DNA of 64,000 bases from Candidatus Yanofskybacteria bacterium CG10_big_fil_rev_8_21_14_0_10_36_16 (GTDB taxonomy: Bacteria > Patescibacteriota > Minisyncoccia > 2-02-FULL-40-12 > IGHO2-01-FULL-4-A), in assembly GCA_002794035.1 (NCBI GenBank), contig PCXQ01000007.1:1785-65784 (forward strand), written 5' to 3'. Position 1 is the stretch's first letter, and every line of letters starts with the position of its first letter. The translations under genes and the position numbers were made by a program. The notes under the pieces are model-generated. The model was not told the origin of the DNA. It saw nothing but the letters and a program-made list of their open reading frames with translations, and did no database searches. Positions 3,072 to 57,769 of this stretch are shown here, piece after piece.

Positions 3072-3506
3072 ATGGGAGACGAATTAAAAAAATTAGAAAA
3101 TGAAGACAATGAAGAAGAGACGACTGATGAGGATTCTGAGGAAGCCGATCTTGTTGCAGCTCAAACAAAAAAAACAACCTCGGATAATGAGGAAGGGACT
3201 CTTACTGTTGATGTCCTTAGGACCAGTGATGATGTTTATATAAAATCAGCCATTGCTGGAGTAACAGCAAAAGATCTTGATATAACAATCAATAATGATA
3301 TGGTCACAATTAAAGGCAATAGAAAGCAAGATGAAACCTTAAAAACTGCCTCCTATGACTGGAGAGAACTTTATTGGGGACCTTTTTCAAGAACAGTAAT
3401 ATTGCCGGAAGAAATTGATGTTGATAGTTCTAAAGCATCTATAAAAAACGGGGTTTTAACTATTAAATTACCCAAGGTCAGCAAAAATAAAACTAAGAAA
3501 ATATAG
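3072..3506 (+). CDS. Hsp20/alpha-crystallin family small heat-shock protein
   Basis: Acidic N-terminal region followed by an alpha-crystallin domain (LTVDVL..DDVYIKSAIAGV..DLDITINNDMVTIKG...GVLTIKLPK). Confidence 0.8.
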   Translation: MGDELKKLENEDNEEETTDEDSEEADLVAAQTKKTTSDNEEGTLTVDVLRTSDDVYIKSAIAGVTAKDLDITINNDMVTIKGNRKQDETLKTASYDWRELYWGPFSRTVILPEEIDVDSSKASIKNGVLTIKLPKVSKNKTKKI

Positions 3507-3520
3507 GAAAAATCACTAAA

Positions 3521-3550
3521 CAGGCCCCAACTTATCGGGGCCTGTTTTAT
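3521..3550 (+). terminator. rho-independent terminator
   Basis: caGGCCCCaacttatcGGGGCCtg hairpin followed by TTTT. Confidence 0.6.
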
Positions 3551-3718
3551 ATTTAATTCATTACAAGTTAATTATAAAATTGTCATGTGAAGCCCCACAA
3601 TAAAATCCATAAGGTGGAACCCCGCACAAAAAAACTCCTTAAAATTGAGCTACTTATGGCCAAATTATAAACCCTGGGTAAATATTATTTCCTAATTGTG
3701 GTATATTAATATTAATCT

Positions 3719-4891
3719 ATGACAATAAAATATAATTATAAAAATCTTGCAATACCAGGACTTTTGGCTGTTTTTTTATCTGGCTTTATGTGGTATTCGA
3801 GCAGTCATTACGACTCTCTCTCTATAGAGGCTCACGATACTGCATTAGCGGAGTTTGATGACTATTCTAAAAATATAAACAAATCCGTTGAAAATGGTTT
3901 TATTTTAACCAGCAACAGTACTAAAATTAATATCGCCTCTGAAATTACCAAGGAATGGCAGATAGAAATAACTAGAAGTAATGGCATAGAACAGTCAATT
4001 CCAAACAATGAGAAAATAACTTCACATCTTAATAATTTTGTATCAAACAAAGTCAAAATTGAACCCAAGAGTCCCCTTTTTGATGTAACCAATGGCGTGG
4101 TATATGAAATTGCACCTGCAACCCCCGGCAGGAATCTAAATACCGTCCAAACGCTTTCAAACATAACCAGGGCAATGATTAAAGGAGAAAACAGGGCAAG
4201 TATTTCTTTTACAGAAACATACTCCTCTATTACAGCAAACTCATTGAATGTTCTGGGTATAAACAAACTAATAGGACGAGGAGAGTCTGACTTTAAAGGA
4301 TCATCTGAGGCCAGAATACACAACATTAAAGTTTCCACTGCTCTTTTCGATGGAGTTGTTATAAAACCAAAAGAAGAATTTTCATTTAATAAAATCTTGG
4401 GGGAAGTTGATGGTTCAACAGGATATAAATCTGAATTAGTAATCAAAGGTGATAAAATAATTCCCGAGTATGGAGGTGGGATTTGCCAAGTTTCAACTAC
4501 TGTATTCAGGAGCGCAATCAATTCAGGCTTGCCCATTACTCAAAGAAAACCCCATTCATTGCCTGTTAGGTATTATAGCCCCCAAGGCATGGATGCCACT
4601 ATCTACCCCGGGGTTGTCGACCTAAAATTTATAAACGACACAGAAAATTACATAATTATAAATGCTGGATTTAATGGCACACAATTAATATTTGAAATAT
4701 ACGGGCAAGAAAAAGATAGAGAGGTTGTTGTCAGCCCACCAAGCTATTACGATGTTCAACCTGATGGAGGATTAAAGGCTGTTTTCACAAGAACTATTAG
4801 TTATGCTAATGGGAGACAAGAATCTGAACAATTTTATTCCAGTTATAAATCACCCTCTAAATTTGAGAGTCTTAGAAACCCATTGGAATAA
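3719..4891 (+). CDS. VanW-domain protein with N-terminal TM anchor
   Basis: GGGICQVSTTVFRSAINSGLPITQRKPHS block matches the VanW family signature (GGGxCQVSTTLY...). N-terminal hydrophobic helix. Confidence 0.7.
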   Translation: MTIKYNYKNLAIPGLLAVFLSGFMWYSSSHYDSLSIEAHDTALAEFDDYSKNINKSVENGFILTSNSTKINIASEITKEWQIEITRSNGIEQSIPNNEKITSHLNNFVSNKVKIEPKSPLFDVTNGVVYEIAPATPGRNLNTVQTLSNITRAMIKGENRASISFTETYSSITANSLNVLGINKLIGRGESDFKGSSEARIHNIKVSTALFDGVVIKPKEEFSFNKILGEVDGSTGYKSELVIKGDKIIPEYGGGICQVSTTVFRSAINSGLPITQRKPHSLPVRYYSPQGMDATIYPGVVDLKFINDTENYIIINAGFNGTQLIFEIYGQEKDREVVVSPPSYYDVQPDGGLKAVFTRTISYANGRQESEQFYSSYKSPSKFESLRNPLE

Positions 4892-4979
4892 ACTAAAAAA
4901 ACCCTTGTATGCAAAGGTCTTAATATTTCCACCACGGGGGCAAAATAGTTCAAATCCTATCTTAAAATATCACAAACAC

Positions 4980-5064
4980 GGTGGGGGCGAGAGGATTTGA
5001 ACCTCCACGCTCGTGAGAGCACCAGCTCCTAAGGCTGGCGTGTCTGCCATTCCACCACACCCCC
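4980..5064 (-). tRNA. tRNA-Leu (anticodon UAG), long variable arm
   Basis: Reverse complement folds as GGGGGTG/CGCCCCC acceptor stem, anticodon loop CUUAGGA, long variable arm and GGTTCAAATCC T-loop; discriminator A plus CC. Confidence 0.85.
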
Positions 5065-5104
5065 ATATGAAAAACATCTTAGCATAAATTTAGCTCTATT
5101 TCTA

Positions 5105-6631
5105 ATGAATTTAAGATATTTTAAACTTATAATTAGCGCGATAATCCTTGCGGGGTTTTTTTATATTACTTGGATTATGATTGATCCTGATATTTTTTGG
5201 CATTTAAAGGTTGGCCAAGAAATATACACAACAGGAGGAATCCCCCACTTTGACCACTTTAGCCACACGATGCCGTACCATGCATGGGTAGACCACGAAG
5301 CACTCACTGAAGTGTGGTTTTATTTAATGTACTCAAGCGGCTTTTGGTGGATTTTAAAAATAATATTTAGCCTAATTATATCTATACCTTTTATTTTTTG
5401 GATTTATAAAAGCAATAATTATTTCTTGCCGGTTGTGATACTGTTTTCATCTATATACCTTCTGGGAATAGCGGGAGTGAGACCTCAGTGGATTTCTTTT
5501 TTGTTATTCTTTGTTGTTTTTCAAATATTACTCCAAAAATATTGGCACAAAAAGAACAACAAATCATTTTATTTTCTACCGTTAATTTTTCTAGTTTGGG
5601 CTAATTTGCATGCCGGGTTTTTTATGGGTTTGATGACATTTGGTTTTTTGGTGATGATGAACCTATTTCAGAACAGAAACATAAATCAGGAAATTCGCCC
5701 AATAATAATTTTGGGATTAAGTACAATTGTTACACTTATTAATCCTTATGGCTGGCATATTTATGAAGAAATTTTTAAAGTAGCTACATCTTCTTCTACA
5801 TTAAAATACATTGCTGAGTGGCAACCAGTATTCACAACGCCAGATCTATCACTAGTACTATTTGGCGGGGTTTTTATTTCTTTTATTTTAATCTTTAAAT
5901 CATACAAAAAATATCCCCTGCCTTTTTTGGCTTTGTCTTTGATAATGTTTTGTATGTTTTTAATGTCAAAAAGACACGGACCTTTATTCTTTATAACTTC
6001 AATGCCAATAATTTTTAATGGATTTGAAATTATAAAAAACAAGATATATGTTTTGCGAAACAACAAACCTTTTTCCCAAACCGAAACCAACAAAGCACTT
6101 TCGGGAGTTTTAATATTGTTTATTATAGCATTGGGTTCTTTTGGTTATAAAATTTTAAATTATCAAGTATATAAAATTCCCGAAAATGCTGTTATCTTTC
6201 TGAAAGAAAATAAATATGGCCAAAAAGATTTAAAGCTATTCAATAATTATGGATGGGGTGGATATTTAATCTGGGAAACACCTGAAATAAAAGTGTTCAT
6301 AGACGGCAGAATGCCTCACTGGCAAAAAAACAAAGAATCCGCAATGAGCGATTATATTAAAACTGTATTCAATCCCGAAACAGAAGAATGGAAAAAAGTA
6401 TTTAATAAATACAAAATAAACACAGTAATAATGCCTGCAAATATATACCAACAAGAACACATATCAAAATATTCAATCAAAAAAATAGAGAATAAAATAA
6501 AAACATGGCTTAAAACTAAAGAAACCACAAAGAATAAAACTCTTGTGGGAATATTAAAAGAAAATGGCTGGAGCACCTCATACCAAGATGATGTTGCTAT
6601 AGTTCTAGAATGCGAAAAAGATTGTTATTAA
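5105..6631 (+). CDS. GT-C fold membrane glycosyltransferase-like protein (PMT/ArnT-like)
   Basis: More than 10 predicted TM helices with an acidic IDPD motif in the first external loop and a soluble C-terminal domain. Family assignment is inferential. Confidence 0.45.
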   Translation: MNLRYFKLIISAIILAGFFYITWIMIDPDIFWHLKVGQEIYTTGGIPHFDHFSHTMPYHAWVDHEALTEVWFYLMYSSGFWWILKIIFSLIISIPFIFWIYKSNNYFLPVVILFSSIYLLGIAGVRPQWISFLLFFVVFQILLQKYWHKKNNKSFYFLPLIFLVWANLHAGFFMGLMTFGFLVMMNLFQNRNINQEIRPIIILGLSTIVTLINPYGWHIYEEIFKVATSSSTLKYIAEWQPVFTTPDLSLVLFGGVFISFILIFKSYKKYPLPFLALSLIMFCMFLMSKRHGPLFFITSMPIIFNGFEIIKNKIYVLRNNKPFSQTETNKALSGVLILFIIALGSFGYKILNYQVYKIPENAVIFLKENKYGQKDLKLFNNYGWGGYLIWETPEIKVFIDGRMPHWQKNKESAMSDYIKTVFNPETEEWKKVFNKYKINTVIMPANIYQQEHISKYSIKKIENKIKTWLKTKETTKNKTLVGILKENGWSTSYQDDVAIVLECEKDCY

Positions 6632-6667
6632 TTATTAATTTAAATCTTCTAACACATTCTGAAACAA

Positions 6668-6698
6668 AAACACCCCTGCCTAAGCGGGGGTGTTTTTA
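6668..6698. terminator. bidirectional rho-independent terminator
   Basis: aCACCCCtgcctaagcGGGGGTGttttt hairpin with A/T runs on both sides. It lies between a plus-strand gene and the minus-strand pilin-like array. Confidence 0.6.
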
Positions 6699-6712
6699 AG
6701 TTTAGGATTTGT

Positions 6713-7099
6713 TTATAGAGTTCCTTGTGACAAGGCATCTAATACGTATCCTGCGGTTGATAGAAGAACACCTACACCTAATACAACCATAGCACCAATC
6801 AAACCGTTAATGATTGTTGTTCTTGCTTCACCGGCTTTAGCAGCGTCACCTCCTGCAGCCATGTATTTAATACCACCGATAATAATGAATATTACAGCGA
6901 TAATAACACCTATAGCAATCAAGAAGTTACCAATTCTTGTTATAACTGATTCTATGTCAGCTAATTCCACAGCATCACCTGTAAGAGGAGGGCTGGGCTC
7001 ATTTAATACCTGGCCAAATACTACAACTGGCACAACTAATAAAGTAACAAGAGCCAAAGTAGGCGCAAGCACTTTCACAATTTTTAATGTTTTAGACAT
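6713..7099 (-). CDS. VirB2/TrbC-like (T4SS-pilin-like) small membrane protein, paralog 1
   Basis: Signal peptide, then hydrophobic helix, GGIKYMAAGGDAAKAGEAR loop and a second hydrophobic helix. Same architecture as the six paralogs that follow. Confidence 0.5.
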   Translation of the reverse strand: MSKTLKIVKVLAPTLALVTLLVVPVVVFGQVLNEPSPPLTGDAVELADIESVITRIGNFLIAIGVIIAVIFIIIGGIKYMAAGGDAAKAGEARTTIINGLIGAMVVLGVGVLLSTAGYVLDALSQGTL

Positions 7100-7468
7100 G
7101 TTTAATTTTTTCAGCGAATAGAGGAACGGGAATAATGCTTAAGCTTCTCTAAAGAGATTATTCTTGTTCCGCCATTCTTATATGAATTAATTTAGACCAA
7201 CGCTACGACCGAACCCTGCCTAATAAAAGCAACGCCCCGTCGGTCTTTAGTATTTTAAGGTTTTTATCCGACCTGTCTGGGAAAATCAATATTTATTGAT
7301 TCTACCAAACAGACCCCCTTTTATTATTATAATGTACTTAATTTATTGTCACAATAAAGCTATCAACAACTATATTTTTCTAATAAATCATATAAAAATC
7401 ATCGCATTATCTATACCCTATCTATCAGCAATCATTTAAAACCTTCATTCTGAAAATAAAATTAACGA

Positions 7469-7834
7469 TTATAAACCAAACCCTCCTGAAAGTGCACCGA
7501 CTATATGCTCTGCTGTTGAAAATATAGTGCCTATACCAAGAACAATCATTGCACCTATTAGTCCGTTTATTATGGTTTTTCTGGCGTCTGCAACCTTAGT
7601 GGTGTCTCCTTTGGCCGACATCCATTTAATACCTCCGTAAACTATGAAAATTACCGCAATAAAAGCTCCTGCAAAAAGCATAAACTGGGCAATGGTTTCT
7701 ATTACATCAAGAATGTTCTCAAGAGTGACAGGTGTAGCATCGCTAAATTGGGCAAAAACTGGAAACGCCAAAAACACCTGAACGAAGACTAGCAGAACCC
7801 AAAATACCTTTTTGTTTTCTTTAAAATTCAACAT
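7469..7834 (-). CDS. VirB2/TrbC-like pilin-like protein, paralog 2
   Basis: FAGAFIAVIFIVYGGIKWMSAKGDTTKVADARKTIINGLIGAMIVLGIG is the shared core. Start trimmed to the internal Met (MLNFKENKK) to avoid overlap with the next paralog. Confidence 0.5.
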   Translation of the reverse strand: MLNFKENKKVFWVLLVFVQVFLAFPVFAQFSDATPVTLENILDVIETIAQFMLFAGAFIAVIFIVYGGIKWMSAKGDTTKVADARKTIINGLIGAMIVLGIGTIFSTAEHIVGALSGGFGL

Positions 7835-7856
7835 AAAAAATTGTTTGAAATGAGAA

Positions 7857-8258
7857 TTATAAACTTCCTCCAGCAATTGCATTAAACAAGTAACCAGCCG
7901 TTGACATTATTGTACCAATACCAAGAACGATAATAGAACCAATCAAACCATTTATTATAGTTTGTCTTGCTCTTGCAACCTTAGATGAATCACCTCCTGC
8001 TGACATCCACAAAATACCGCCCCAAACAATAAATATTACCGCAATAAGCGCACCTGCAAACAATAGGAATTGGGCAATTGTTGTTATCGCATCTAGAATA
8101 CTGGTTAAATTAAGCTCTTCTGAATCTGGCACTGGATTACCTGGTATCTCTAATGCTCCTTCCGGATTAGTAAATTGAGCATTGGCCGACAAAGCAAACC
8201 CCGCTAAAAATAGAAGGACCGCTACCTTGCTTATATTTTTTTTATTAAAAATCTTCAT
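7857..8258 (-). CDS. VirB2/TrbC-like pilin-like protein, paralog 3
   Basis: FAGALIAVIFIVWGGILWMSAGGDSSKVARARQTIINGLIGSIIVLGIG. Start is probably MKIFNKK, preceding a signal peptide ending in ANAQ. Confidence 0.5.
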   Translation of the reverse strand: MKIFNKKNISKVAVLLFLAGFALSANAQFTNPEGALEIPGNPVPDSEELNLTSILDAITTIAQFLLFAGALIAVIFIVWGGILWMSAGGDSSKVARARQTIINGLIGSIIVLGIGTIMSTAGYLFNAIAGGSL

Positions 8259-8409
8259 TTTTAAATACAGCTCGGGAATAAGGACAAAAGATTGCCCAAC
8301 CGTTCCCAAAAGCCAAATTATTAATTATTTACTTAATTATATCTAAAAAACCTAAACAAATCTAATTTTTATACACAGAACTCATATTTTACTATAAATC
8401 TATTTTTTA

Positions 8410-8808
8410 CTAAAAAGATATTGAGCTAGTTACTATCTCACATGTAAAAGTAACTTCTACGCCTACTGCGTTTGCCACAGTTACCACTATTGTTCCGACA
8501 CCAAATATAACAACAGCTGCAATAAAAGCATACATAAGACCCTTTCTTGCTTCTCCTGATTTTTGGACATCACCCTTAGCTGACATTAATTTGACTGCTT
8601 CAACCATAAAAAAGATGACCAAACCAAACATGGCGGCATAGAATGTCCAACAAGCAAGGCCTGTAGCTATAGCCACCAAATCCTTAACGCTAAAATCCTC
8701 AATACCAAGTCCTTCTTGAGCATAAAGCGGAAATGGGAAACCAACCATAACCATCATAGATACAATTAACAGTGATGATAATAATTGTGTTTTGTTTATT
8801 TTATACAT
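8410..8808 (-). CDS. VirB2/TrbC-like pilin-like protein, paralog 4 (divergent)
   Basis: Signal peptide ending in LYAQ, then two hydrophobic helices separated by a KLMSAKGDVQKSGEARK loop. Confidence 0.45.
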   Translation of the reverse strand: MYKINKTQLLSSLLIVSMMVMVGFPFPLYAQEGLGIEDFSVKDLVAIATGLACWTFYAAMFGLVIFFMVEAVKLMSAKGDVQKSGEARKGLMYAFIAAVVIFGVGTIVVTVANAVGVEVTFTCEIVTSSISF

Positions 8809-8839
8809 TATAATTTTTATTCAATATTAATTAAAATAT

Positions 8840-9217
8840 TTAACCGTTGCCTCTTAGCGCAAGCACGCTCTCTATTAATGCTACAAATCCCCTGCCTATC
8901 AACACAACTGCCAGCCCTATAATTGCATACCACAAAGTTCTTGTGCCTTGTTGAAATTTCTGGGAATTGCCTCTTGAAGTATACATAATAACCCCAGCCA
9001 CGATTATCATTATTACAACAATGGGAATTGCAATTAATATGAGCTGGTCGGCTATTTGCTCAACAAGTTCTATAAATGTATCGGGGACATTATTACAACC
9101 ACCACCCAAGACACAAAGAGGATTTTCAAACTCTAAAGCAAAAACAGAACCAGCATTTAATACAACTACGGTGATCAATAAAAAGAGTAGCGCTACCTTG
9201 TTGTTTAAATTAGCCAT
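8840..9217 (-). CDS. VirB2/TrbC-like pilin-like protein, paralog 5
   Basis: Signal peptide, a CxxGGGC pair, and two hydrophobic helices with a YTSRGNSQKFQQG loop. Confidence 0.45.
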   Translation of the reverse strand: MANLNNKVALLFLLITVVVLNAGSVFALEFENPLCVLGGGCNNVPDTFIELVEQIADQLILIAIPIVVIMIIVAGVIMYTSRGNSQKFQQGTRTLWYAIIGLAVVLIGRGFVALIESVLALRGNG

Positions 9218-9371
9218 ATTTAAAAAATTCAATTTACAATTTTTAATTCTTAATTTTCATTTAATTTTCAATGAATTAATTTTTAAACATAATACATTCC
9301 AAAACCATGTTTCAGAATTAGAAATTAAAAATTCATTAAAAATTATAAAATTATAAATTAAAAATTAAAAT

Positions 9372-9734
9372 TTAATTGCCGCCACGCAACACACTAACAA
9401 CCAAATTTACAAATCCTTGTCCTATAAAAATAACTGCAAGGCCTATTATGGCATATTTTAACATATCCATACCCTGTTTAAATTTTTGGGGATTACCTCC
9501 TGCGGTAAACATCCTAACACCAGCAATAATGATAACAATAATTGATATTGGAATTGATAATGTTACCAACCAAGTTCCAATTGTCTTTATTAATTCTTCA
9601 AAACTGCCGTAGCCAACAAAGTCAGGAAGTTGTGCATATGCATTATTTACAGCAAAAATACTTATAAAAAGCATTGGTATTATTGCAAAAAATAAAGCTT
9701 TTGATTTTGTTGGCATAATTGTTGTACTTAACAA
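9372..9734 (-). CDS. VirB2/TrbC-like pilin-like protein, paralog 6
   Basis: Signal peptide ending in AYAQ, then IIVIIIAGVRMFTAGGNPQKFKQG loop and a second helix. Confidence 0.45.
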   Translation of the reverse strand: MLSTTIMPTKSKALFFAIIPMLFISIFAVNNAYAQLPDFVGYGSFEELIKTIGTWLVTLSIPISIIVIIIAGVRMFTAGGNPQKFKQGMDMLKYAIIGLAVIFIGQGFVNLVVSVLRGGN

Positions 9735-9753
9735 TTAAAAATTGAAAATTATT
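9735..9753. repeat. AT-rich 19-mer TTAAAAATTGAAAATTATT (copy 1 of 2), candidate promoter/operator of pilin genes
   Basis: Exact 19-nt match to 11375-11393, both immediately upstream (minus-strand sense) of pilin-like genes. A degenerate third copy lies at 11409-11426. Confidence 0.5.
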
Positions 9754-9774
9754 TAAAAATTACGAAATTAATTT

Positions 9775-11304
9775 TTATATTCCCTCACACCCTATAAATG
9801 CGCCATTATTATCACCCGCGGTCACGTGCACATGAGTGACCCCCCCGTTTGAACAACCAGGGCCAGACTCAAGAAGATTACCTGCACCATCAACACATCT
9901 AGGACATTCCACAAAACCTCCGGAACCCGTTTCGCAATTAGCAGCTTTGGCTCCACATTCAATTGCTGCTTTCTGTATAATAGCTCCAACGCCTGGATAT
10001 TTAAATTGATCATAATCATAATCAATAGCTAGAGCGCCTTGATCACCCGTTCTGCCCCCATAATGACATGAGTTTGGAGAATGAGCACATGGACCACACC
10101 AATTATATCCTCTAGTATAATTACATCGCCAATTTGATATTGATAGTTCATAAGTAGATATCGTACCAACATTTTTACCCCTTGTTTTGGTACCTATACA
10201 TGATTGCAAAGCATCTGTTGATGGTGCATCACCAAAAGGATATTTTTCTCCGCAAATTGAAGCAATTGCTACCCATCCTGGATTAGAAGATGACCATGTA
10301 GCACAAGCAGGGTCTATACCTGCACCAGTTGCACAATTAGGAATTGGCGTAGAAGTAACCGTTGGTTGAGGTGGTGGTGGAGGTGGTGCAGTAGCTGTTA
10401 CTGTCGGAGGTGGTGGAGGTGGCTGAGTTGGTACAGACGAAACTGTTACCAAACAAGCATCTGCATCAGATTCACCGCTACCCCCTTCGTCCGTAACTGT
10501 AAAATTAATAATGTAAATTCCTGGGGAAGAATATGATGTTTGGAAAGCAAAACAACTTGTACTAGATACATTGGAAGCGCCTTCTGCATGCCAGCTACAA
10601 CTCAAGGGGGCGATGCCGTTTGTAAATGCACCAAAATTGATAATTTGACCCACCAACGCTGTAACTGCTTCGCCAGCCCCAAACCCATTTGGTTCAACGC
10701 AATCTGCAAAAGCCTCGGCACTAATACAAAGACCACATCCATCATTTTCAGGAGCACCGCAATCTATTTCATTCATTGTGCAATTGCGATCAACATCAAC
10801 ACAACCTGCCGGAAATTCACAAGGGCCAGGACCTGGCAACTCACTAGGCAAACTAAGCGGTGGTGGTATAACAACAACATCGCCACCCTGACAGTCAATT
10901 TGATTCCATGCTCTAAAATCAACCCCGTTATCCCCGTTAGTTAAAGAAAGCAAAATAGTATTGGTAATCATCCATGCTCCATATATTATAAGCAGAGCTA
11001 TTAATGTATTTTTAAAAATATTCTTGCCCCTTTGGAACATGTCTGGCTTGGCTCCGCCCATAAGCATCATCAAGCCCCCAATAATTATGAATACGGCAGC
11101 CAATACGGGCACTATGTTATATGACAAAAAATTGATAATTCTTTGTATCATGACAAAGATATCACATATAGTACACGGGCTCTGTCCCTCATTTCCACAA
11201 GGAACAAAACCTCCTTGGGCATACACATCGTTTACAATAAAACCACTGACAAAGAGGATCAGGGTTATTATAAAAAAGAAGGTTTTAAATTGTTTTAGTG
11301 CCAA
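9775..11304 (-). CDS. pilin-like N-terminal domain fused to PKD-like domain, poly-Pro linker and C-terminal LAS/M15-like zinc peptidase domain
   Basis: N-terminus has the same signal peptide/helix/GG..K-loop/helix layout as the six small paralogs. A PKD-like block follows (GIYIINFTVTDEGGSGESDADACLVTV), then PPPPPPTVTATAPPPPPPQP. The Cys-rich C-terminal domain carries SCHYGGRTGD (SxHxxGxAxD-like) and THVHV (HxH) zinc-peptidase motifs. Confidence 0.55.
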   Translation of the reverse strand: MALKQFKTFFFIITLILFVSGFIVNDVYAQGGFVPCGNEGQSPCTICDIFVMIQRIINFLSYNIVPVLAAVFIIIGGLMMLMGGAKPDMFQRGKNIFKNTLIALLIIYGAWMITNTILLSLTNGDNGVDFRAWNQIDCQGGDVVVIPPPLSLPSELPGPGPCEFPAGCVDVDRNCTMNEIDCGAPENDGCGLCISAEAFADCVEPNGFGAGEAVTALVGQIINFGAFTNGIAPLSCSWHAEGASNVSSTSCFAFQTSYSSPGIYIINFTVTDEGGSGESDADACLVTVSSVPTQPPPPPPTVTATAPPPPPPQPTVTSTPIPNCATGAGIDPACATWSSSNPGWVAIASICGEKYPFGDAPSTDALQSCIGTKTRGKNVGTISTYELSISNWRCNYTRGYNWCGPCAHSPNSCHYGGRTGDQGALAIDYDYDQFKYPGVGAIIQKAAIECGAKAANCETGSGGFVECPRCVDGAGNLLESGPGCSNGGVTHVHVTAGDNNGAFIGCEGI

Positions 11305-11374
11305 TTTTTAAATTCTCGTTAAATTTTTAATGAATAAATTTTAAAACAAAACTCTATTAACGTTTGTTCAATTA

Positions 11375-11393
11375 TTAAAAATTGAAAATTATT
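11375..11393. repeat. AT-rich 19-mer TTAAAAATTGAAAATTATT (copy 2 of 2)
   Basis: Exact repeat of 9735-9753, located upstream of the first (largest) pilin-like gene on the minus strand. Confidence 0.5.
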
Positions 11394-11458
11394 TTAAAAT
11401 TATAAAATTAAAAAATTGAAAATTCTAAATTATTTAAATATTTAAACAATTAAATAAT

Positions 11459-12796
11459 TTAGTTCCTAGCTCTGCGCATTAACACGTTTACCTGCCTTTC
11501 TGCATTTTCAAGAGCATCTCTTACTGAGCGTCGGCCAAAGTTAACATCATCTATCATATCAGCAAAAATCTTTTCTATATCTGTGTTATCTACTTGATAC
11601 CAAGACCGAGCCGACAAAGACTGCTCAGCGAATATCCCTATGTCTGGTTTCCTTTTCTGTTGCTCTATTAAGTCACGGCGGGCAGCTGGACGCCCAGATG
11701 CATCGAGATAAGCAGCAGCACCCTCTGCAGAACTCATAAACAGAACAAACTTCCATGCCTCAATTGCATTACCTGATGATTTAGATACGGTGGGCGCCCA
11801 ATAGTTAGCATAGTTTACTTTTATCGGGGCATCTTTTATTTGAGGCATAGAAGCAATCCCAAAGTTAAACCTTGCTGCCTTATCTCTAATGGTAGCTATA
11901 TGATGAGAATAGTTAAACATCATTGCTGTATCACCCTCTATAAAGTCGTCTATGGAATAATTCTGACCATCATTCCAAGTGTAAACCTTCCTCTTTAGCG
12001 GATTGGCAAAGTCTGTGTAATACTGAAGCGCTAATTCTCCCACTTTTTCTCTATCAACAGCACTGGTAAAAGTGGCTGTAGTATTGGTGGAGTTTGTCAT
12101 TTGAACTCCACTTTGAAGCATCATGAGCATTAAAATGTCTGTTGAACGGTTAACATTCCTGGCCGTACCGATTGCTGCTCCAGATCTTACAATATTTCCA
12201 TCATTATCAACAACTGTCAGACGATTTACTGCATCGTTAAATTCTTCCCAAGTTTCAGGCGCCCTAGTCAAGCCAACGGAATTAAATAAGTCCTTGTTGT
12301 AATACAAGGCTAACGTATCAATATAAACAGGCAAGGCTGCAATCCTGCCGTCTATTGTTAGGTCATCTACCGCAACGTCAACAAATTGATTCTGGAAATC
12401 AGTGATAGTAAACAACGGCTCCCCGTCCTCTCCTTGGAGATTTTGAGGCAAGGCTACGATTTTGTCTCCATGCTTTGGCAACCAAGTATTGTGCATCATC
12501 CAAATATCAGGACCGGTTCCTGAAGCAAAAGCATCTATCAGTTTTTGTTCATATTCATCATAGCTAAACTGTTTATAAACTATTCGAATCTGCCTGTTTA
12601 CACTCTTGTATTTATCCAAAACAGCATTTATGACTTCCCGGTCATCAAAAACCCCCCAAAATTGTAACGTAGTCGTCTGAGTTGGAGCTCTGCTTTTTAT
12701 ATTGCCAAGTAGCAATATCATAATCAAAATTATTACAACAACTGCTGCAACAATAGCTATAAAAAACATTTTGTTTTGACCTAGAGAAAACTTCAT
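11459..12796 (-). CDS. extracellular solute-binding protein (ABC transporter SBP family 1, sugar-type)
   Basis: N-terminal TM/signal anchor followed by MalE-like periplasmic binding-protein composition. No cognate permease or ATPase is adjacent. Confidence 0.6.
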   Translation of the reverse strand: MKFSLGQNKMFFIAIVAAVVVIILIMILLLGNIKSRAPTQTTTLQFWGVFDDREVINAVLDKYKSVNRQIRIVYKQFSYDEYEQKLIDAFASGTGPDIWMMHNTWLPKHGDKIVALPQNLQGEDGEPLFTITDFQNQFVDVAVDDLTIDGRIAALPVYIDTLALYYNKDLFNSVGLTRAPETWEEFNDAVNRLTVVDNDGNIVRSGAAIGTARNVNRSTDILMLMMLQSGVQMTNSTNTTATFTSAVDREKVGELALQYYTDFANPLKRKVYTWNDGQNYSIDDFIEGDTAMMFNYSHHIATIRDKAARFNFGIASMPQIKDAPIKVNYANYWAPTVSKSSGNAIEAWKFVLFMSSAEGAAAYLDASGRPAARRDLIEQQKRKPDIGIFAEQSLSARSWYQVDNTDIEKIFADMIDDVNFGRRSVRDALENAERQVNVLMRRARN

Positions 12797-13558: not shown

Positions 13559-15997
13559 CTAAACTATTACGGCAGATGCAATCTTATCTCCCTGTCCCAA
13601 TTTCATTATTCTAACTCCCTGTGTTGCCCTACCCAACAAAGGAATGCTTGAAATTTCAGTTTTAATAACATTGCCTTTTCCTGAAATTGCAATTAAATCA
13701 TTGTCTTCTTCTGTTATGACATTTGCAAATACAATTTCACCTGTCTTTGCAGTAACCTTAGCAGTTGTAATACCTCTACCCCCTCTTTTTTGAACCTTAT
13801 AAGAAGAGAGGTGTGTCATTTTTCCATAACCATTAGCCATGGCAATAAAAAGTTTAAGACCTTTTGAAGAACCATCGGACACAATACTAGCACCAACAAC
13901 CTTTGCATTGTTTTCATTTAATCTTATCCCCAAAACACCAGCAGCACTTCTTCCCATAGGTCTTACGTCTTTTTCTTTAAATCTTATAGAGCTTCCGTTT
14001 GAAGCGGCAACCAGAATTTCATCAGAACCTGAGGTTGCAAGAACCCAACCAAGCTCATCATCTTTGTTTAATCGTATAGCAATCATTCCGCTTCGTCTTA
14101 CATTGGCAAATTCTTCTGCATCAACTTTTTTAACAATCCCCTTTGATGTAACCATAAACAAATATGTTTTTTTACTGTCTTTTGGCACAGGTATAACAGC
14201 TGTTACAATACTGTCTTGAGCAATCTGTAAAAAGTTAGCCAAAGATTTGCCTTTTGACTGTCGTGACGACTCCGGTACTTCGTAGCCTTTGGTCTGAAAA
14301 ACCTTGCCCGTGTTAGTAAAAAACATTAAATCATCATGAGTATTGGCAAGGAAAAAATGCCTAACCACGTCTTCTTCTTTTGTAGAAATACCGACAAGAC
14401 CCTTACCGCCCCTCTTTTGAGCCTTCAGAATGGTCGGGGTCATACGCTTGATATATCCGCCTTGAGTAATCACAAAAAGAGAATCTTCCTCAGGCACAAG
14501 CTCTTCTTCTCCTATTTCTCTAACTGCTGATTTAACAATCTTGGTTTTTCTTTCGTCTCCATATTTTTCTTTTATTTCGTTAAATTCTTCCTTTACGACT
14601 CCCAAAAGTTTTTTAGGACTAGCCAAAAGTGATTTCAAATAATCTATTAATTTTCTCTTCTCCTCTAATTCATCATCAATCTTTTTTCTTTCGAGTCCTG
14701 CCAAGCTCTGTAAACGCATGTCCAAAATTGCATTAGTCTGACGGTCTGAAAACTTAAATCTTTTAATCAAGTTAAAAAAAGCGTCTTCTCTAGAGGCTGA
14801 TTTTTTTATTATTTTTATTATTTCATCTATATGATCAAGTGCTTTTTTTAAACCTTCTAAGATATGCGCGCGTTCTTCAGCCTTTCTTAAATCATGTTTT
14901 GTTCTTCTCGCAACAACCTCTTTTCTGTGTTCAAGAAATTTTTCAAGAAATAATTTGAGGCCAAAAACTTGAGGCTGGATACCGTCGATTAAACCAAGCA
15001 TGTTTATATGAAATGCTTTTTGCATCTCTGTATATTTATAAAGCTGGTTTAAAATTTTCTTTGGGAAAGAATCATTTTTTAAATCAATAGCAATCCTCAA
15101 TCCATCCTTATCAGATTCATCCCTTATATCCTTTATGCCTTCAACTTTTTTATCTTTAACCAAAGTTGCTATTTTTGATATTAATTCAGCTTTATTGGTT
15201 TGATATGGTATTTCGGTAACTATTATTTGGAAACCTCCTTTTTTAGTTTCTATAATTTCTGCTTTAGCCCTTATAACCACAGAGCCCTTGCCTGTAGCAT
15301 AAGCAGAGTCAATATCATTTTGACCATAAAGAGTGCCACCTGTTGGGAAATCCGGCCCTTTAACATATTGCGACAGTTCTGTAACATCCGTATCTGGATT
15401 ATCTGCAAGATGAATCAACCCGTCGATTATTTCATTCAAATTATGCGGAGGTATGTTAGTTGCCATACCCACAGCAATACCCATAGAGCCATTAATTAAT
15501 AGATTAGGAATTCGCGTTGGTAAAACTGTCGGCTCTTTCTTTGTGCCGTCATAATTATCTACAAAACTAACAGTATCTTTTTCAATATCTGAAAGCATCA
15601 TTTCTGCTATTGGAGCCATCTTTGCTTCTGTATAACGCATAGCTGCGGGAGGATCTCCGTCAACCGAACCAAAATTACCCTGACCTTTTACCAGGGGATA
15701 TCTCATTGAAAAATCTTGAGCCATGCGAACCATTGAGTCATAAGCTGCCGCATCTCCATGCGGATGATATTTACCCAAAACCTCACCGACAACTGTTGCT
15801 GATTTTCGAAACTTGGCTGAGGATGTTAAACCCATATCCCGCATTGCATAAAGTATCCGGCGATGTACCGGTTTTAGTCCGTCTCGTATATCAGGCAAGG
15901 CTCTACCAACGATTACGCTCATGGCATAATCAAGGTAAGATTCTCGCATCTCGTCTGTTATGGTACGAGAAGATATTCTTGTGTCTTCTACGGCCAC
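13559..15997 (-). CDS. gyrA: DNA gyrase subunit A
   Basis: [30 protein letters not shown] catalytic N-terminal signature. GyrA-box QKRGGKG in the C-terminal beta-pinwheel. GTG start. Confidence 0.95.
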
Positions 15998-16280
15998 AAG
16001 AAAATATTAAACATCAGTTACCAAATATCAAAAACCAGGTGTCCCGCCAAAGCGGGACAAGAATTATTATTTTGATATCTAATAATTTTGATATTTAATT
16101 TTTAATATTAGTTTAATTCTAGCAAATATAGCATGCTTTGCCAAGTTGCCATAAATCATAAAATTAAGTTAATAACCGGTAAAATTAAATCCCCATATCA
16201 GCTTTAAAAGACCGCCAAAAAAAATAAAAAGCCCGACCGAAAAATAATCGAGCCAACTCAAAATCAAAATAGTTTTATTA

Positions 16281-16625
16281 TTATTCTACCAAGGGCAATC
16301 TCTGTGGCCCTACATCTGGCTGTCCACTATCGCCCTGTTGTGGTAAATCTTCTTTAACACCAACTAATTCAAGTATTGTATCTTTGAAACCTGATACAGA
16401 ACCCCCAATTGCCGCAAACAGTGAAGGCTGGTTTTCTTTTTCCTGTTCCGCAAGAATTCGTTGTTGCTCAACCTCTTCAGGATGTAGCATTGCATACATA
16501 TCGTCCTGAGCTGACTTAAACCATGTAAAAATCACGAGAGACGAAACCACAAAAACCGAAATCCACATAAAAATTTCTCTTATGTGTTCGGGTTGTTTTC
16601 TAATTTCTTGTAATATGTTGGGCAT
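16281..16625 (-). CDS. hypothetical small membrane-anchored protein
   Basis: ORF with one predicted TM helix and a Q/E-rich C-terminus. No recognisable motif. Confidence 0.4.
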   Translation of the reverse strand: MPNILQEIRKQPEHIREIFMWISVFVVSSLVIFTWFKSAQDDMYAMLHPEEVEQQRILAEQEKENQPSLFAAIGGSVSGFKDTILELVGVKEDLPQQGDSGQPDVGPQRLPLVE

Positions 16626-16659
16626 CTTTTATACGATCCTAATATTGTTAGGATCGCGA

Positions 16660-17301
16660 TTATGTTATAAACATAACTAATTTAGTTTCATCTATAGGCA
16701 AACCTTTTTCATTAATACGCCAACTTGTACCAACCTTTTCTGGCTTAATACCAATTTCTTTAATAAACTTATCAGGTCCCTCTATATCTAATTTTAAATC
16801 TTTTGTCTTATAATGCATAGGCACAATCATCTTGGGGCTAATTTGGTTTATTATTTTTAAAGCTTTTTGAGCGTCTATCGTACATTTTCCTCCCACAGGA
16901 ATAAACAAAACATCAATATCGCCTATACTCTCTATTTGTTCGTGGCTTAATTCTTTTTCTCCAAAATCACCTAAATGACAAAACTTAATTCCCTCAAATC
17001 TAATCACATAAATAGTGTTAAGTCCCCTGTCTTTGCCCTCATTTTCATCATGATAAGAAACAATCCCCTCTATTTGAACACCGCCTTTTTCATATTCACC
17101 CGGACCGCTTACCAAAAAAGCGTCATCGGACTTCCCCTCTAAATTGTGGTGATCATCGTGATTGTGTGTTGTTAGCAGAATATTGTCTTTGCCCAATCGT
17201 GGCGCTCTAAGACCAATTTCTTTGGAAAAAGGGTCTATCATAATACTCATATTTTTACCTTCCAAACGAAAACACGAATAACCGTAGTAATTAATATTCA
17301 T
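16660..17301 (-). CDS. MBL-fold metallo-hydrolase
   Basis: TTHNHDDHHNLEG is the HxHxDH metal-binding motif. Start trimmed to the internal Met (MNINYYGYSCF) to avoid overlap with rpsA. Confidence 0.7.
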   Translation of the reverse strand: MNINYYGYSCFRLEGKNMSIMIDPFSKEIGLRAPRLGKDNILLTTHNHDDHHNLEGKSDDAFLVSGPGEYEKGGVQIEGIVSYHDENEGKDRGLNTIYVIRFEGIKFCHLGDFGEKELSHEQIESIGDIDVLFIPVGGKCTIDAQKALKIINQISPKMIVPMHYKTKDLKLDIEGPDKFIKEIGIKPEKVGTSWRINEKGLPIDETKLVMFIT

Positions 17302-39490: not shown

Positions 39491-40927
39491 GTGAAGGATT
39501 TAAATTTTTTATCACCAAAAAATAAAGGATCAAAACCAAACAATACCGCGACTAAAGTCGCTACCTTTTTGGCATTCTTTGCTATTGCTTTCTCTGCTTC
39601 CCTTACTTATGTAGCATCGGAAACAAAACCAATTCAATTAAATCTCAGCCACATTGAGTGTAATTATAATAATACTGATGGTATCAATGTTCACTTTGTG
39701 GCAATAAATTTACCGGATGATGTCAGTGATTTTGGACAAGTAACCTATATAGTTAATAGTGAAGGCCGTACTGCTGAATTTACTAAGCTTTCCGGCAATA
39801 CTGCACACTACAATGATTACTTACTAGAAGTTTCTGATACATATTCTGTAACCGATGGCTATGTTGTTATTGACGGACAAACCGTACAACTTCATAATCC
39901 TAAATCTATAAAGATAACTTGTGGTGAAAATCCTACCCCTACACCAACACCAGAACCTACTCCTACTGTAATCCCTACACCTACACCTACTCCTACTGTA
40001 ATCCCTACACCTACACCTACTAGCTGCTTTTTAGAAATCACCAAAACAGTTGATCAGGAAACATCGGTTCCTGGTCAAATATTGGAATATAAATTAAATT
40101 TTGAAAATACAGGAACAACCAACTGCACAGGTGGTGGAGTAGAAATAGAAGACACATTAGTGAATGAGTTAACTTTTGTTGACCAATCTCATTCTGAAAA
40201 TGTAACTTGGGTAGGTCAAAATGAACAAACCCTTCAATGGAATGCTGGCACTCTAACCCCCGGTGAAAAAGGATGGGTTCAGTTTGACGCTCAAGTTAAC
40301 ACACCTCAAAGCTGTGGCAATTATACAATTAATAACAAAGGCAAGATTACTGCATTTGAATTGTCTTGGCAGTGGGTACTAAGTAATAACGTAGAGATAA
40401 ATATCAACAACAACTGCCCTACTTCTACACCAACTCCTACTCCTACTGTAACCCCTACTTCTACACCTACACCAACTGTTACACCTACTCCTACTGTAAC
40501 CCCTACTTCTACACCTACACCAACTGTTACACCTACTCCTACTTCTACACCTACACCAACTGTTACACCTACTCCTACTTCTACACCTAGTGGTGGAGGT
40601 GGGGGTGGTGGGGGTTTCTTCCCTCAGCCTACTCCTACACCGACACCTACTGTAACTCCTACACCTACTCCCGTTGTTCTTGGTTCAAGTACAACTGAAA
40701 AACCTAAAACAGCAACATCTAGCACAGCAACATCAAATTTGGCACAAGTTGCTGGCGTAAGCACAGGAACCGATACAATTATTGTTTCGTGGATTATAGC
40801 ATTAGTGTTCTCAACGTTATTTGCTATATATAAAACAACAGAGCAATCAAACTTAAAAGAAATCCTTAAAATTATAAAAATTCAAAAAAAGGACAAAAAT
40901 AAATTTAATTTCGCTCTCCACAACTAA
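39491..40927 (+). CDS. cell-surface protein with DUF11-like repeat domain, Pro/Thr-rich linkers and C-terminal TM anchor
   Basis: N-terminal TM/signal anchor. CFLEITKTVDQETSVPGQILEYKLNFENTGTTNCTGGGVEIEDTL is a DUF11-like block. Long (TPTPTVTP)n tracts, a Gly8 run and a C-terminal hydrophobic anchor. Confidence 0.6.
   Translation: MKDLNFLSPKNKGSKPNNTATKVATFLAFFAIAFSASLTYVASETKPIQLNLSHIECNYNNTDGINVHFVAINLPDDVSDFGQVTYIVNSEGRTAEFTKLSGNTAHYNDYLLEVSDTYSVTDGYVVIDGQTVQLHNPKSIKITCGENPTPTPTPEPTPTVIPTPTPTPTVIPTPTPTSCFLEITKTVDQETSVPGQILEYKLNFENTGTTNCTGGGVEIEDTLVNELTFVDQSHSENVTWVGQNEQTLQWNAGTLTPGEKGWVQFDAQVNTPQSCGNYTINNKGKITAFELSWQWVLSNNVEININNNCPTSTPTPTPTVTPTSTPTPTVTPTPTVTPTSTPTPTVTPTPTSTPTPTVTPTPTSTPSGGGGGGGGFFPQPTPTPTPTVTPTPTPVVLGSSTTEKPKTATSSTATSNLAQVAGVSTGTDTIIVSWIIALVFSTLFAIYKTTEQSNLKEILKIIKIQKKDKNKFNFALHN
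40425..40600 (+). repeat. in-frame tandem nucleotide repeats encoding the Pro/Thr linker
   Basis: Repeated cctac(t/a)cctact(g/t)taac/acacc units, followed by a G-rich run ggtggaggtgggggtggtggggg. A smaller PT repeat block lies at 39945-40020. Confidence 0.7.
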
Positions 40928-40966
40928 AAAACCTTGCCTTCTTAATATGTGATAAAATGAAGGCAT

Positions 40967-41959
40967 ATGGTAATAAACAAAGATATGTTAATACGTGTTG
41001 AAAAACTATTTACACGCAAGTTAATTGTGTGGAACTTGGTCCTTTTTGCTCTTGTAAAATTTGTACTTTCTTACTCAGGACTCCAACTGGCTACAGTTCT
41101 AGAACACATAGAGCTTTTTGACTCAAGAGAAATCATAACTAAAACAAATATAGTCAGAGCAAATAATAATTTGCCGCCTTTAAATGCTAATGTTGAATTA
41201 GACTTAGCCGCATCAAAAAAACTTCAGGATATGATTTCAAATGGATATTTTGCTCACATAAGTCCTGAGGGTACGACACCTTGGTTCTGGATAAAAAATA
41301 GCGGTTACAAATACGTATACGCAGGCGAAAATCTTGCTATTGGGTTCACTGAGGCTGAAGCTACTGTTGAAGCATGGTTTGAATCCCCTTCCCACAGAGA
41401 AAACCTTTTAAACAGCAACTACGATGAGATTGGAGTTGCTGTAGGAAAGGTTGAAAACTTGGATGGATACTCAGGCATCTTGGTTGTTCAAATGTTTGGC
41501 AAAAGACCAATATTTGCAATTAACGAAGCCAATGCCTTTGAAACATCTAATAAGACCCCAAACACAGAAGGGACTACTGTACCAGAAATTACACCTAATT
41601 CGTTTGTTGCAGGCAGTCAGCCGGCAACAAATCCCAATACTTCAGCAATTACCCCAATAACAGATGACGAAGTGGTAATGCTTCAATACGTATCTACAGA
41701 TAAAAACTTAGGTGGGTCAGAGGAGCCGATTGAAATAACAACAAACGAAAATAATTTAAATATAAACTCCGTATCAAAGACTGTTAATAATGCTTATATT
41801 ATTTATGCCCTAATAATAGCCGCTATATCTATCCTATTCGTAACATTTGTTGAAAATAGTAAAAAACATGTTGCTGGAGCTACGTTTAATATAATTCTGT
41901 TTATAATAGCTACAACAATGCCTGTATTAGAAATAATAAGCAAGGGAGCAATATTCTAA
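40967..41959 (+). CDS. CAP/SCP/PR1-like domain protein with N- and C-terminal TM segments
   Basis: GYFAHISPEGTTPWFWIKNSGYKYVYAGENLAIGF...AWFESPSHRENLL..YDEIGVAV are the CAP domain signature blocks. Confidence 0.7.
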   Translation: MVINKDMLIRVEKLFTRKLIVWNLVLFALVKFVLSYSGLQLATVLEHIELFDSREIITKTNIVRANNNLPPLNANVELDLAASKKLQDMISNGYFAHISPEGTTPWFWIKNSGYKYVYAGENLAIGFTEAEATVEAWFESPSHRENLLNSNYDEIGVAVGKVENLDGYSGILVVQMFGKRPIFAINEANAFETSNKTPNTEGTTVPEITPNSFVAGSQPATNPNTSAITPITDDEVVMLQYVSTDKNLGGSEEPIEITTNENNLNINSVSKTVNNAYIIYALIIAAISILFVTFVENSKKHVAGATFNIILFIIATTMPVLEIISKGAIF

Positions 41960-53896: not shown

Positions 53897-54006
53897 AATC
53901 TAAATATACTTAAAAATCGTTTTAAATTCAATCAAAAACATAATTTAAAAACATTGAAAAAAACCATAAAATATGGCAATATTTAGAAATGCACAAAAAA
54001 GAAAAC

Positions 54007-57524: not shown

Positions 57525-57769
57525 AATTATATTATTATATATTTAATTAAATATATTATTATTATTATACCTGTTTATATCTGTATAACTCTTTTTAGTG
57601 TTTAAATACAATACTAAATGATGTGTGATGATTACTAATAACCTGTGGAAAATATATTTATAAAAAATGGATAATTGGTACATGGTCGGTTATCACCAAA
57701 CATAGAAACTCAATATCAACATAGTTATCAGACGTGTTATACACATAATCTCAACTTAATTTACCTTAA
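57525..57769. promoter_or_regulatory. candidate oriC region (dnaA-dnaN intergenic): AT-rich with DnaA-box-like 9-mers
   Basis: TGTGGAAAA (57644-57652), TTATCACCA (57690-57698), TTATCAGAC (57725-57733) and TTATACACA (57737-57745) each differ by 1-2 nt from TTATCCACA/TGTGGATAA. Flanked by long A/T tracts. Confidence 0.45.

Follow-up and report, generated by a model that had tools for sequence, protein, structure and literature searches.

What does a pilin-like protein do when it ends in a domain resembling a cell-wall peptidase, and on whose wall would such a domain act? The question is raised by a gene in a 64,000-nucleotide (nt) stretch of Candidatus Yanofskybacteria bacterium CG10_big_fil_rev_8_21_14_0_10_36_16 (contig PCXQ01000007.1, positions 1,785 to 65,784), referred to below as the window. 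The gene, here called the pilin-peptidase gene, is the open reading frame (ORF) 9775..11304 on the minus strand, which has a TTG start and encodes 509 amino acids (aa), including 28 Cys. In the reading we prefer, to which we give a probability of roughly 0.6, its product is a pilin-anchored peptidoglycan peptidase that does the job of VirB1 for pilus assembly, at the producer's own wall, with activity and substrate as predictions. An original prediction, made from the letters of the stretch, had described a pilin-like domain joined through poly-Pro linkers and a PKD-like domain to a zinc peptidase of the LAS/M15 type. This interpretation is probably right in outline, with wall cutting as the predicted function, and wrong in the motif it called diagnostic.

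Judged from its homologues, the pilin-peptidase is a genuine gene and no chance ORF, since an identical 509-aa protein is present in public collections (P0007) and an exhaustive search of 1.84 billion cluster representatives disclosed 172 relatives of its C-terminal domain at E ≤ 1e-3. A further entry, PJE50354.1 from a Candidatus Yanofskybacteria metagenome-assembled genome, is a 458-aa call of the same protein which begins at an internal ATG (M52), so that the signal peptide and a conserved PCG...PCxxCD motif are missing from it. Because the upstream part including this motif aligns with homologues, the TTG at 11304 is favoured over the ATG at M52, which supports truncation of the public gene model.

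All strings quoted in the original prediction were located in the translation: GIYIINFTVTDEGGSGESDADACLVTV at aa 262, the double poly-Pro PPPPPPTVTATAPPPPPPQP at aa 295-314, SCHYGGRTGD at aa 412 and THVHV at aa 490. The predicted domain order, from a pilin through linkers and an immunoglobulin (Ig)-like spacer to a catalytic-looking C-terminal domain, is also correct. From the N-terminus, the modules are:

11218..11304, minus strand: signal peptide, aa 1-29 (MALKQFKTFFFIITLILFVSGFIVNDVYA / QGG); hydrophobic at aa 1-19, helix 2-29 in the model
10933..11217, minus strand: VirB2/TrbC-like pilin module of type IV secretion systems (T4SS), aa 30-124, with loop GGAKPDMFQRGK; from PF18895 and the helix model
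10699..10932, minus strand: Cys-rich, Pro-containing spacer, aa 125-202, with 8 Cys; lineage-specific
10438..10698, minus strand: PKD-like (Ig-like) block, aa 203-289; sub-threshold profile match
10303..10437, minus strand: Pro/Thr-rich linker, aa 290-334 (PPPPPPTVTATAPPPPPPQPTVTSTPIP...); read from the sequence
9778..10302, minus strand: C-terminal LAS-like domain (Hedgehog/DD-peptidase fold), aa 335-509 (175 aa); from the model and conserved residues
10111-10113, 10081-10083, 10063-10065 and 10021-10023: codons of the conserved residues R398, H408, H414 and D428
9931-9933, 9832-9834 and 9826-9828: codons of the conserved residues E458, H491 and H493

In the structure model, the N-terminus is a leader followed by a VirB2-type helical hairpin. 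The T4SS_pilin profile PF18895 matches aa 53-117 with 29.0 bits (gathering cut-off 26.6), and the TrbC profile PF04956 gives E 9.7e-5, below its own cut-off. The two helices are joined by the short basic loop GGAKPDMFQRGK, hydrophobic segments occupy aa 1-19, 55-73 and 96-114, and the full-length AlphaFold model places helices at 2-29, 46-84 and 87-121 with a predicted local distance difference test score (pLDDT) of 83-97. The signal peptide would be cleaved at an A-x-A site. Six ORFs follow downstream on the same strand, all of them matching PF18895 (26.9-46.1 bits), and the pilin-peptidase gene thus heads an array of seven pilin genes; its first place in the array agrees with the original prediction:

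9372-9734, 8840-9232, 8410-8808, 7857-8309, 7469-7882 and 6713-7099 (span 6713..9734), minus strand: six downstream pilin genes, PF18895 above cut-off

The middle region of the protein (aa 125-334/335) is modelled with pLDDT < 50 and is missing from relatives of about 300 aa; a search with aa 121-294 found no homologue. The PKD-like string proposed earlier is present, and the identity of aa 203-289 as a PKD-like block is plausible but sub-threshold. Pfam PKD (PF00801) and PKD_4 (PF18911) match at E 0.014-0.15 with 12.5-15.9 bits against cut-offs of 23.5-27; for the isolated region the values are E 0.014 for PKD_4 and E 0.062 for PKD, both under the gathering score. Similarity to the solved PKD domain 4l9d is weak (E 0.98), beta strands are predicted at 251-271 and 285-288 within the segment of pLDDT < 50, and the automatic UniRef name of the protein is "PKD domain-containing protein". 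Relatives carry P/T/S-rich linkers in the position of the Pro/Thr-rich linker, and Ig-like spacers were found at this place among the 73 longer family members (He_PIG in 6, fn3 in 3 and TIG in 2). Most members are about 290-310 aa long, with a linker of 15-35 residues between pilin and peptidase where the window protein has about 210 aa.

In nearly all relatives, the C-terminal domain spans about 150 aa and runs to the very end of the protein. Apart from domains such as the Ig-like spacers, what Pfam recognises besides it is PF18895. With each GTDB species represented by a single genome, 49 loci were obtained, all but two labelled as Patescibacteria lineages (Yanofsky-, Paceibacter-, Doudna-, Nomura-, Vogel-, Moran-, Azam-, Gribaldo- and Saccharibacteria). 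Among 155 cluster representatives, H414 is kept in 154, H408 and D428 in 150 each and R398 in 144, the terminal HxH is found in 147 of 154, and E458 is at least 90% conserved in alignment A3. In the numbering of the window protein, the conserved set comprises C369, C394-N-Y-T-R398-G, C403, C406-x-H408, N-S-C413-H414-Y-G-G, G420, G423, A426-x-D428, C450, C457-E458, H491-x-H493 and C506. Degenerate sites occur in a few members (P0046 and P0025), and the window protein has a specific insertion at about aa 460-488.

These data correct the motif on which the original prediction relied. The H414-x6-D421 spacing of SCHYGGRTGD, regarded as diagnostic of LAS enzymes, is present in the window protein, but D421 is mostly T/S/N (or G) in relatives, and we rejected it as a zinc motif. 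The conserved pair is instead H414/D428, that is H-x13-D (x12 in P0004), in which S-x-H-x-x-G and A-x-D are separated by a 7-residue insertion. The other part of the proposed motif set, the terminal HxH, is conserved.

The structure model of the domain has the LAS-type fold foreseen by the original prediction, at modest scores. Its elements run in the order helix, strand, loop with H408/H414, strand with D428, helix, strand ending in E458, and strand with H491-x-H493, which we take to be the same order as in human ShhN. Weak Foldseek matches in PDB and BFVD were to VldE (E 0.024), a multidomain phage LT_GEWL lysin (E 0.084) and a Gordonia tape-measure protein (E 3.4). Profile alignment by hhalign with human ShhN, in a sequence verified as identical to 6e1h_C, paired H408 with H134, H414 with H140 and, across the 7-residue insertion, D428 with D147; at a low alignment threshold the two were colinear as far as THVHV / AHIHC. 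With E. coli MepK and the phage T5 endolysin, SYH...AMD and SKH...AID were paired with SCH414...A-x-D428, and the terminal His with H493 or H491. The weight of the assignment lies in the agreement, position by position, of alignments to three LAS subfamilies. At these modest scores, H414, D428 and H491-x-H493 fall in the model within the loop and the strands from which LAS enzymes coordinate zinc, H491-V-H493 being on the last core strand as is the third ligand of LAS enzymes. H408, E458 and R398 would fall in the places of auxiliary catalytic residues, H408 by its alignment with H134 of ShhN, and E458 and R398 by secondary-structure order only. The Hedgehog/DD-peptidase motif consists of H-x6-D, H-x-H and a catalytic Glu (PMC6027127), and VldE uses His, Asp and His with an upstream Arg (PMC11667670). 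By sequence, the pilin-peptidase family retains these residue types, but with H-x13-D.

Several observations weigh against this assignment and the function drawn from it. Each hhalign alignment (E 0.12-0.23) is statistically insignificant alone, and sequence profiles of M15, VanY and Hedgehog detect none of the 42 aligned members, even at E ≤ 10. His and Asp are 13 residues apart where 6 is canonical, and the meeting of H414, D428 and H493 at a single site is a prediction. Ten Cys are near-invariant in the domain, including C403-x2-C406-x-H408-x4-C413-H414, and this cluster could be a separate structural metal site or form disulfides; joint loss of Cys columns was uninformative about disulfide partners, the core Cys being near-invariant and the hidden Markov model alignment ragged at the C-terminus. 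Entry of the window protein into a pilus and its peptidoglycan substrate are proposals. No VirB4 homologue was found in the 64-kb window, where the only ORFs of at least 600 aa encode leucyl-tRNA synthetase (LeuRS), GyrA, FtsH and a penicillin-binding protein (PBP), and the locus lies among housekeeping genes.

Searches by sequence were likewise negative: neither the window domain nor any of the 42 aligned members matched Pfam at E ≤ 10, NCBIfam gave no match to the domain, PHROGs gave none for all 42 members, and phmmer and profile searches of PDB sequences with the domain found nothing. Together with the model, we consider the C-terminal domain to be a divergent LAS-like family of its own, missed by current profile libraries.

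The silence of the enzyme profiles, and the H-x13-D loop and numerous Cys that are unusual for M15 enzymes, would also fit a Hedgehog-like module that keeps fold and metal site and serves on the pilin for binding or adhesion to glycan, protein or peptidoglycan. For animal Hedgehog ligands, a non-catalytic zinc centre is the long-standing view. Such a role is very unlikely here, as H408, E458 and R398 are conserved besides the metal ligands and complete a catalytic-type set, which is degenerate in the exceptions P0046 and P0025. Drosophila Hedgehog, thought to be inactive, has lost exactly the residues that the pilin-peptidase family keeps (PMC6027127). The domain also co-occurs with an SLT domain in the relative P0061, described below.

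The LAS enzymes considered for comparison (MEROPS M15 and relatives) comprised the Streptomyces albus Zn DD-carboxypeptidase 1LBU, E. coli MepK, VanX/VanY, LdcB, phage T5 and Ply500 endolysins, and MT3 of pneumococcal VldE. Shared with them are the order of elements bearing His, Asp and His-x-His, the S-x-H-x-x-G and A-x-D halves, H-x-H, a conserved Arg and Glu of possible equivalence, and a predicted extracellular location. The pilin-peptidase domain differs in escaping the M15, VanY and Hedgehog profiles, in its His-Asp spacing of 13 with a conserved G-x-x-G insertion, in its ten near-invariant Cys, in its C-terminal position on a membrane or pilin anchor, and in its near-exclusive occurrence in Patescibacteria (47 of 49 loci so labelled).

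The surroundings of the gene bear on where such an enzyme would work. In many genomes the order gyrA, methyltransferase, solute-binding protein (SBP_bac_1), pilin-peptidase, pilins, HSP20, PrsW and LeuRS is conserved. The gene immediately upstream in the window is:

11459..12796, minus strand: membrane-anchored oligosaccharide-type solute-binding protein (SBP); SBP_bac_8 E 6e-31, SBP_bac_1 E 4e-29

The closest solved relatives of the SBP are sugar-binding proteins. It directly precedes the pilin-peptidase gene in 17 loci including the window, and in 9 of the 17 the two genes share 4 nt at their stop and start codons. Wall glycan or liberated fragments are possible ligands of the SBP. The pairing was noted in the window and in L001, L004, L007, L008, L010, L013, L024, L028 and L054-L057, and it is kept where the wider neighbourhood differs (L054). 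The SBP is an orphan, with neither a permease nor an ATPase gene beside it.

Placement between gyrA, methyltransferase, SBP, HSP20, PrsW and LeuRS genes, syntenic in many genomes and without virB4 within 10 kb, could indicate a housekeeping enzyme, in which the pilin-like hairpin is merely a membrane anchor and the domain trims the cell's own peptidoglycan during growth, without a pilus or secretion system. LAS enzymes such as MepK, LdcB and VanY are indeed ordinary participants in wall maturation. We regard this role as distinctly unlikely: most loci examined have at least one pilin gene after the pilin-peptidase gene or virB4 before it, PF18895 is matched in 43 of the 73 long members and in many short ones, and an unrelated anchor is seen only in the form adjacent to virB4.

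Part of the family is linked to secretion genes. In 13 of the 49 species-level loci a gene for a VirB4 ATPase (PF19044, AAA_10, TraC_F_IV, CagE_TrbE_VirB) is found upstream in the same orientation. In three of these the gap is 4-73 nt (L016, L018 and L022), and the downstream gene (L016 5259-6140, L018 9539-10435, L022 3764-4669) encodes a family variant without signal peptide or pilin, made of a highly charged N-terminal segment of 45-60 aa, a hydrophobic stretch of about 38 aa and then the peptidase-like domain. Upstream ORFs of about 896 aa with a Walker A motif in L034, L042, L046 and L052 were considered as VirB4 and rejected: none of the four matches the VirB4 model, and those of L034, L042 and L052 are ClpB. 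In five loci a secreted beta-rich protein of 232-333 aa without annotation is encoded between virB4 and the pilin-peptidase gene:

L012, 8071-9116: secreted beta-rich protein
L031, 7841-8909: secreted beta-rich protein
L035, 7878-8922: secreted beta-rich protein
L033, 7751-9084: secreted beta-rich protein
L023, 7974-8966: secreted beta-rich protein

A protein of about 110 aa with three transmembrane segments precedes it in four of the five, the place being taken by a 127-aa non-membrane ORF in L023. Both proteins are candidates for further T4SS components, the three-segment one perhaps, with a question mark, resembling VirB3/PrgI.

A link to peptidoglycan comes from P0061 (1011 aa), which holds the same gene position in a close relative. 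It combines a pilin, fn3/He_PIG spacers, an SLT lytic transglycosylase domain (E 4.5e-13) and the C-terminal LAS-like domain; its ends share 38% identity with the window protein, and the SBP upstream of it scores 516 bits against that of the window. TraG and PrgK are T4SS hydrolases with two domains (PMC12102498), and P0061, in which SLT as a bona fide peptidoglycan glycosidase is paired with the LAS-like domain, follows the same pattern.

A published precedent comes from Southlakia epibionticum ML1, in which SEML1_0007 is located directly downstream of virB4 (SEML1_0008) and is essential by transposon sequencing (Wang et al. 2023, PMC10633639). Its residues 951-1105 were labelled "Hedgehog/DD-peptidase" by structure-based annotation (PMC10633639 supplementary tables). 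The likeness, which concerns annotation and gene position only, lies in this C-terminal domain of about 155 aa and in the order virB4 then peptidase, as in 13 related loci; its cluster, like that of the window, includes a VirB2-like pilin array ending next to an Hsp20 gene. Differences are its length of 1113 aa and the location of the window gene, which is not beside virB4.

The VirB1-like role raised by the original prediction is thus favoured by the SLT domain of a close relative, by virB4 upstream in other loci and by the Southlakia protein, while the window locus itself lacks virB4 and its domain has another fold than the VirB1 class. Hydrolases of this class (VirB1, PrgK, TraG of pIP501, TcpG and CD419) resemble the pilin-peptidase in the local opening of peptidoglycan proposed for the T4SS, in the virB4 linkage of part of the family, and in the SLT domain of P0061, which VirB1 and TraG also have. 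They carry SLT, CHAP/NlpC-P60 or M23 domains and are not pilins, whereas here a LAS-like fold sits on a VirB2-type pilin. The resemblance is functional only.

The wall that would be cut need not be that of the producer, and indicators point in both directions: short linkers and the anchored form next to virB4 towards the cell's own wall, Ig-like spacers and other fusions of pilins with enzymes outwards. If the pilin-peptidase were part of the pilus, most plausibly at its tip, it could cut the wall of a host or partner cell for contact, for delivery or uptake, or to release wall fragments as nutrients. With the spacer of about 210 aa in the window protein, and the He_PIG, fn3 and TIG spacers in longer members, the enzyme would stand well away from the membrane of the producer. 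Degradative domains occur on other pilin fusions (Peptidase_S8 in L060, a GH5-like domain in P0096), and a gene for an oligosaccharide-type binding protein is translationally coupled upstream in many loci. Patescibacteria are described as epibionts that need their T4SS and pilin array to grow on hosts (PMC10633639, PMC12857230). We nevertheless consider a lysin directed at the host unlikely. The linker of 15-35 residues in most members would keep the domain near the producer's wall if the pilin stays in the membrane, and incorporation into a filament is a supposition. In three loci the domain is placed on a non-pilin membrane anchor right after virB4, a position usual for self-wall hydrolases in monoderm T4SSs.

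Assembly of a pilus through the producer's own wall, our preferred reading, can be put as a sequence of steps. After Sec export and removal of the signal peptide, the protein would sit in the membrane as a two-helix hairpin, and perhaps in the pilus at a later stage, with an outward-facing C-terminus, as follows from the established VirB2/TraA topology. By sequence, the C-terminus bears the Cys-rich stretch, the PKD-like Ig block, the Pro/Thr linker and then the 175-aa domain, which is predicted to bind one Zn2+ and to hydrolyse a peptide bond of peptidoglycan stems or cross-links. Delivery to the assembly site of a VirB2-like pilus would be secured by fusion to the pilin module and by the first position in the array. 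The producer's wall would be opened there locally, so that a different fold would do the job of VirB1, PrgK, TraG and TcpG.

A bolder form of the proposal, which we hold to be improbable and slightly more so than the host lysin, joins the two directions. The pilin-peptidase would be the priming or tip subunit of a VirB2-like pilus and act as a "drill bit" through the wall of the producer and then that of the host, the coupled SBP would capture glycan or muropeptide fragments, and VirB2-type hairpins in general would serve as a modular display scaffold for extracellular enzymes (LAS-like peptidase, SLT, subtilisin, GH5-like). By sequence, such hairpins do seem to carry several kinds of enzymes. 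Locus L060 encodes a 1611-aa protein with T4SS_pilin and Peptidase_S8 (subtilisin) domains (3379-8214), beside the 1094-aa family member P0104. About 2 kb beyond it, at 10240-11367, a reverse transcriptase and bAvd pair forms the signature of a diversity-generating retroelement.

Fusion of pilins to functional modules has a precedent in the type IV pilins PilB and PilC of Streptococcus sanguinis (PMC8179133, PMC9934059), in which a pilin module is likewise joined to a module that can be displayed. The fold and assembly machinery of those pilins are unrelated, and what they display are adhesins or lectins, as opposed to an enzyme-like module on a VirB2/TrbC-type pilin in the present case. Arrays of 2-11 VirB2-like pilin genes have been reported in Patescibacteria (Quinonero-Coronel et al. 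2025, PMC12102498), a range that includes the seven divergent PF18895 genes of the window. According to the same survey, most Patescibacteria with VirB2 are without VirB1, and pilus biogenesis seems to be VirB1-independent (PMC12102498). It describes no pilins with catalytic passenger domains, and the pilin-peptidase family is a candidate VirB1 substitute in some lineages.

Other features of the window complete the description of the array and its surroundings:

6661..6693, minus strand: terminator-like hairpin CACCCCCGCTTAGGCAGGGGTG followed by TTTTTGTTT (T-run) after the last pilin gene; read from the sequence
3719-4891, 39491-41959 and 53989-56121, plus strand: envelope-related genes

The consensus scan did not list the hairpin at 6661..6693, and an Rfam scan of 6500-11600 gave only sub-threshold matches, which lie over it (Leu_leader, 29.9 bits, gathering score 50) and were taken as chance. 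The last pilin gene (6713-7099) is separated by a 370-nt gap, in which the best promoter-like sites of the region are located (7354-7326, 10/12 matches), and may be a separately expressed major pilin. A 508-aa polytopic membrane protein with about 8 hydrophobic segments and no Pfam match is encoded at 5105-6631 on the plus strand and converges on the end of the array.

The envelope genes listed encode a VanW-like protein containing PG_binding_4, a DUF11 surface protein with a secreted CAP/SCP-domain protein after it, and a class A PBP; from such envelope-related genes, the class A PBP included, it follows that the organism makes peptidoglycan. The source segment is an ordinary Patescibacteria chromosome with genes for LeuRS, GyrA, ribosomal protein S1, FtsH, NusA, trigger factor, PBP1a and dnaA/dnaN, and a GC content of 29-50%. 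The dnaN and dnaA genes at 56430-59140 (minus strand) indicate the region of the replication origin, some 45 kb away from the pilin array, and in L012 dnaA sits 3 kb downstream of the pilin-peptidase gene. T4SS genes of Patescibacteria are reported near the replication origin, with which both dnaA positions agree. In L003 a 509-aa protein O-mannosyltransferase of the PMT family (GT-C) is encoded at 15449-16978, a few kb past the pilin array. The Pro/Thr-rich linkers would be typical targets of O-glycosylation.

A large part of bacterial diversity is accounted for by Patescibacteria, most of which are epibionts; their cells are monoderm and walled. In the one tractable species, the T4SS and VirB2-like pilins are essential (PMC10633639), and the passage of the VirB2 pilus through the wall was named as an open point in the 2025 survey (PMC12102498). 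The system described here is a variation on LAS peptidases, T4SS wall hydrolases and modular pilins, all of known kinds. It corrects a truncated public gene model (PJE50354.1) and defines a family of LAS-like domains not covered by current profile libraries. It also indicates that VirB2-type pilins can be modular, a property known until now, to our knowledge, only among type IV pilins. Pilins with their own wall-peptidase-like domain, linked to virB4 elsewhere and fused to SLT in a close relative, are a concrete candidate for the means by which the pilus would pass the wall in these bacteria.

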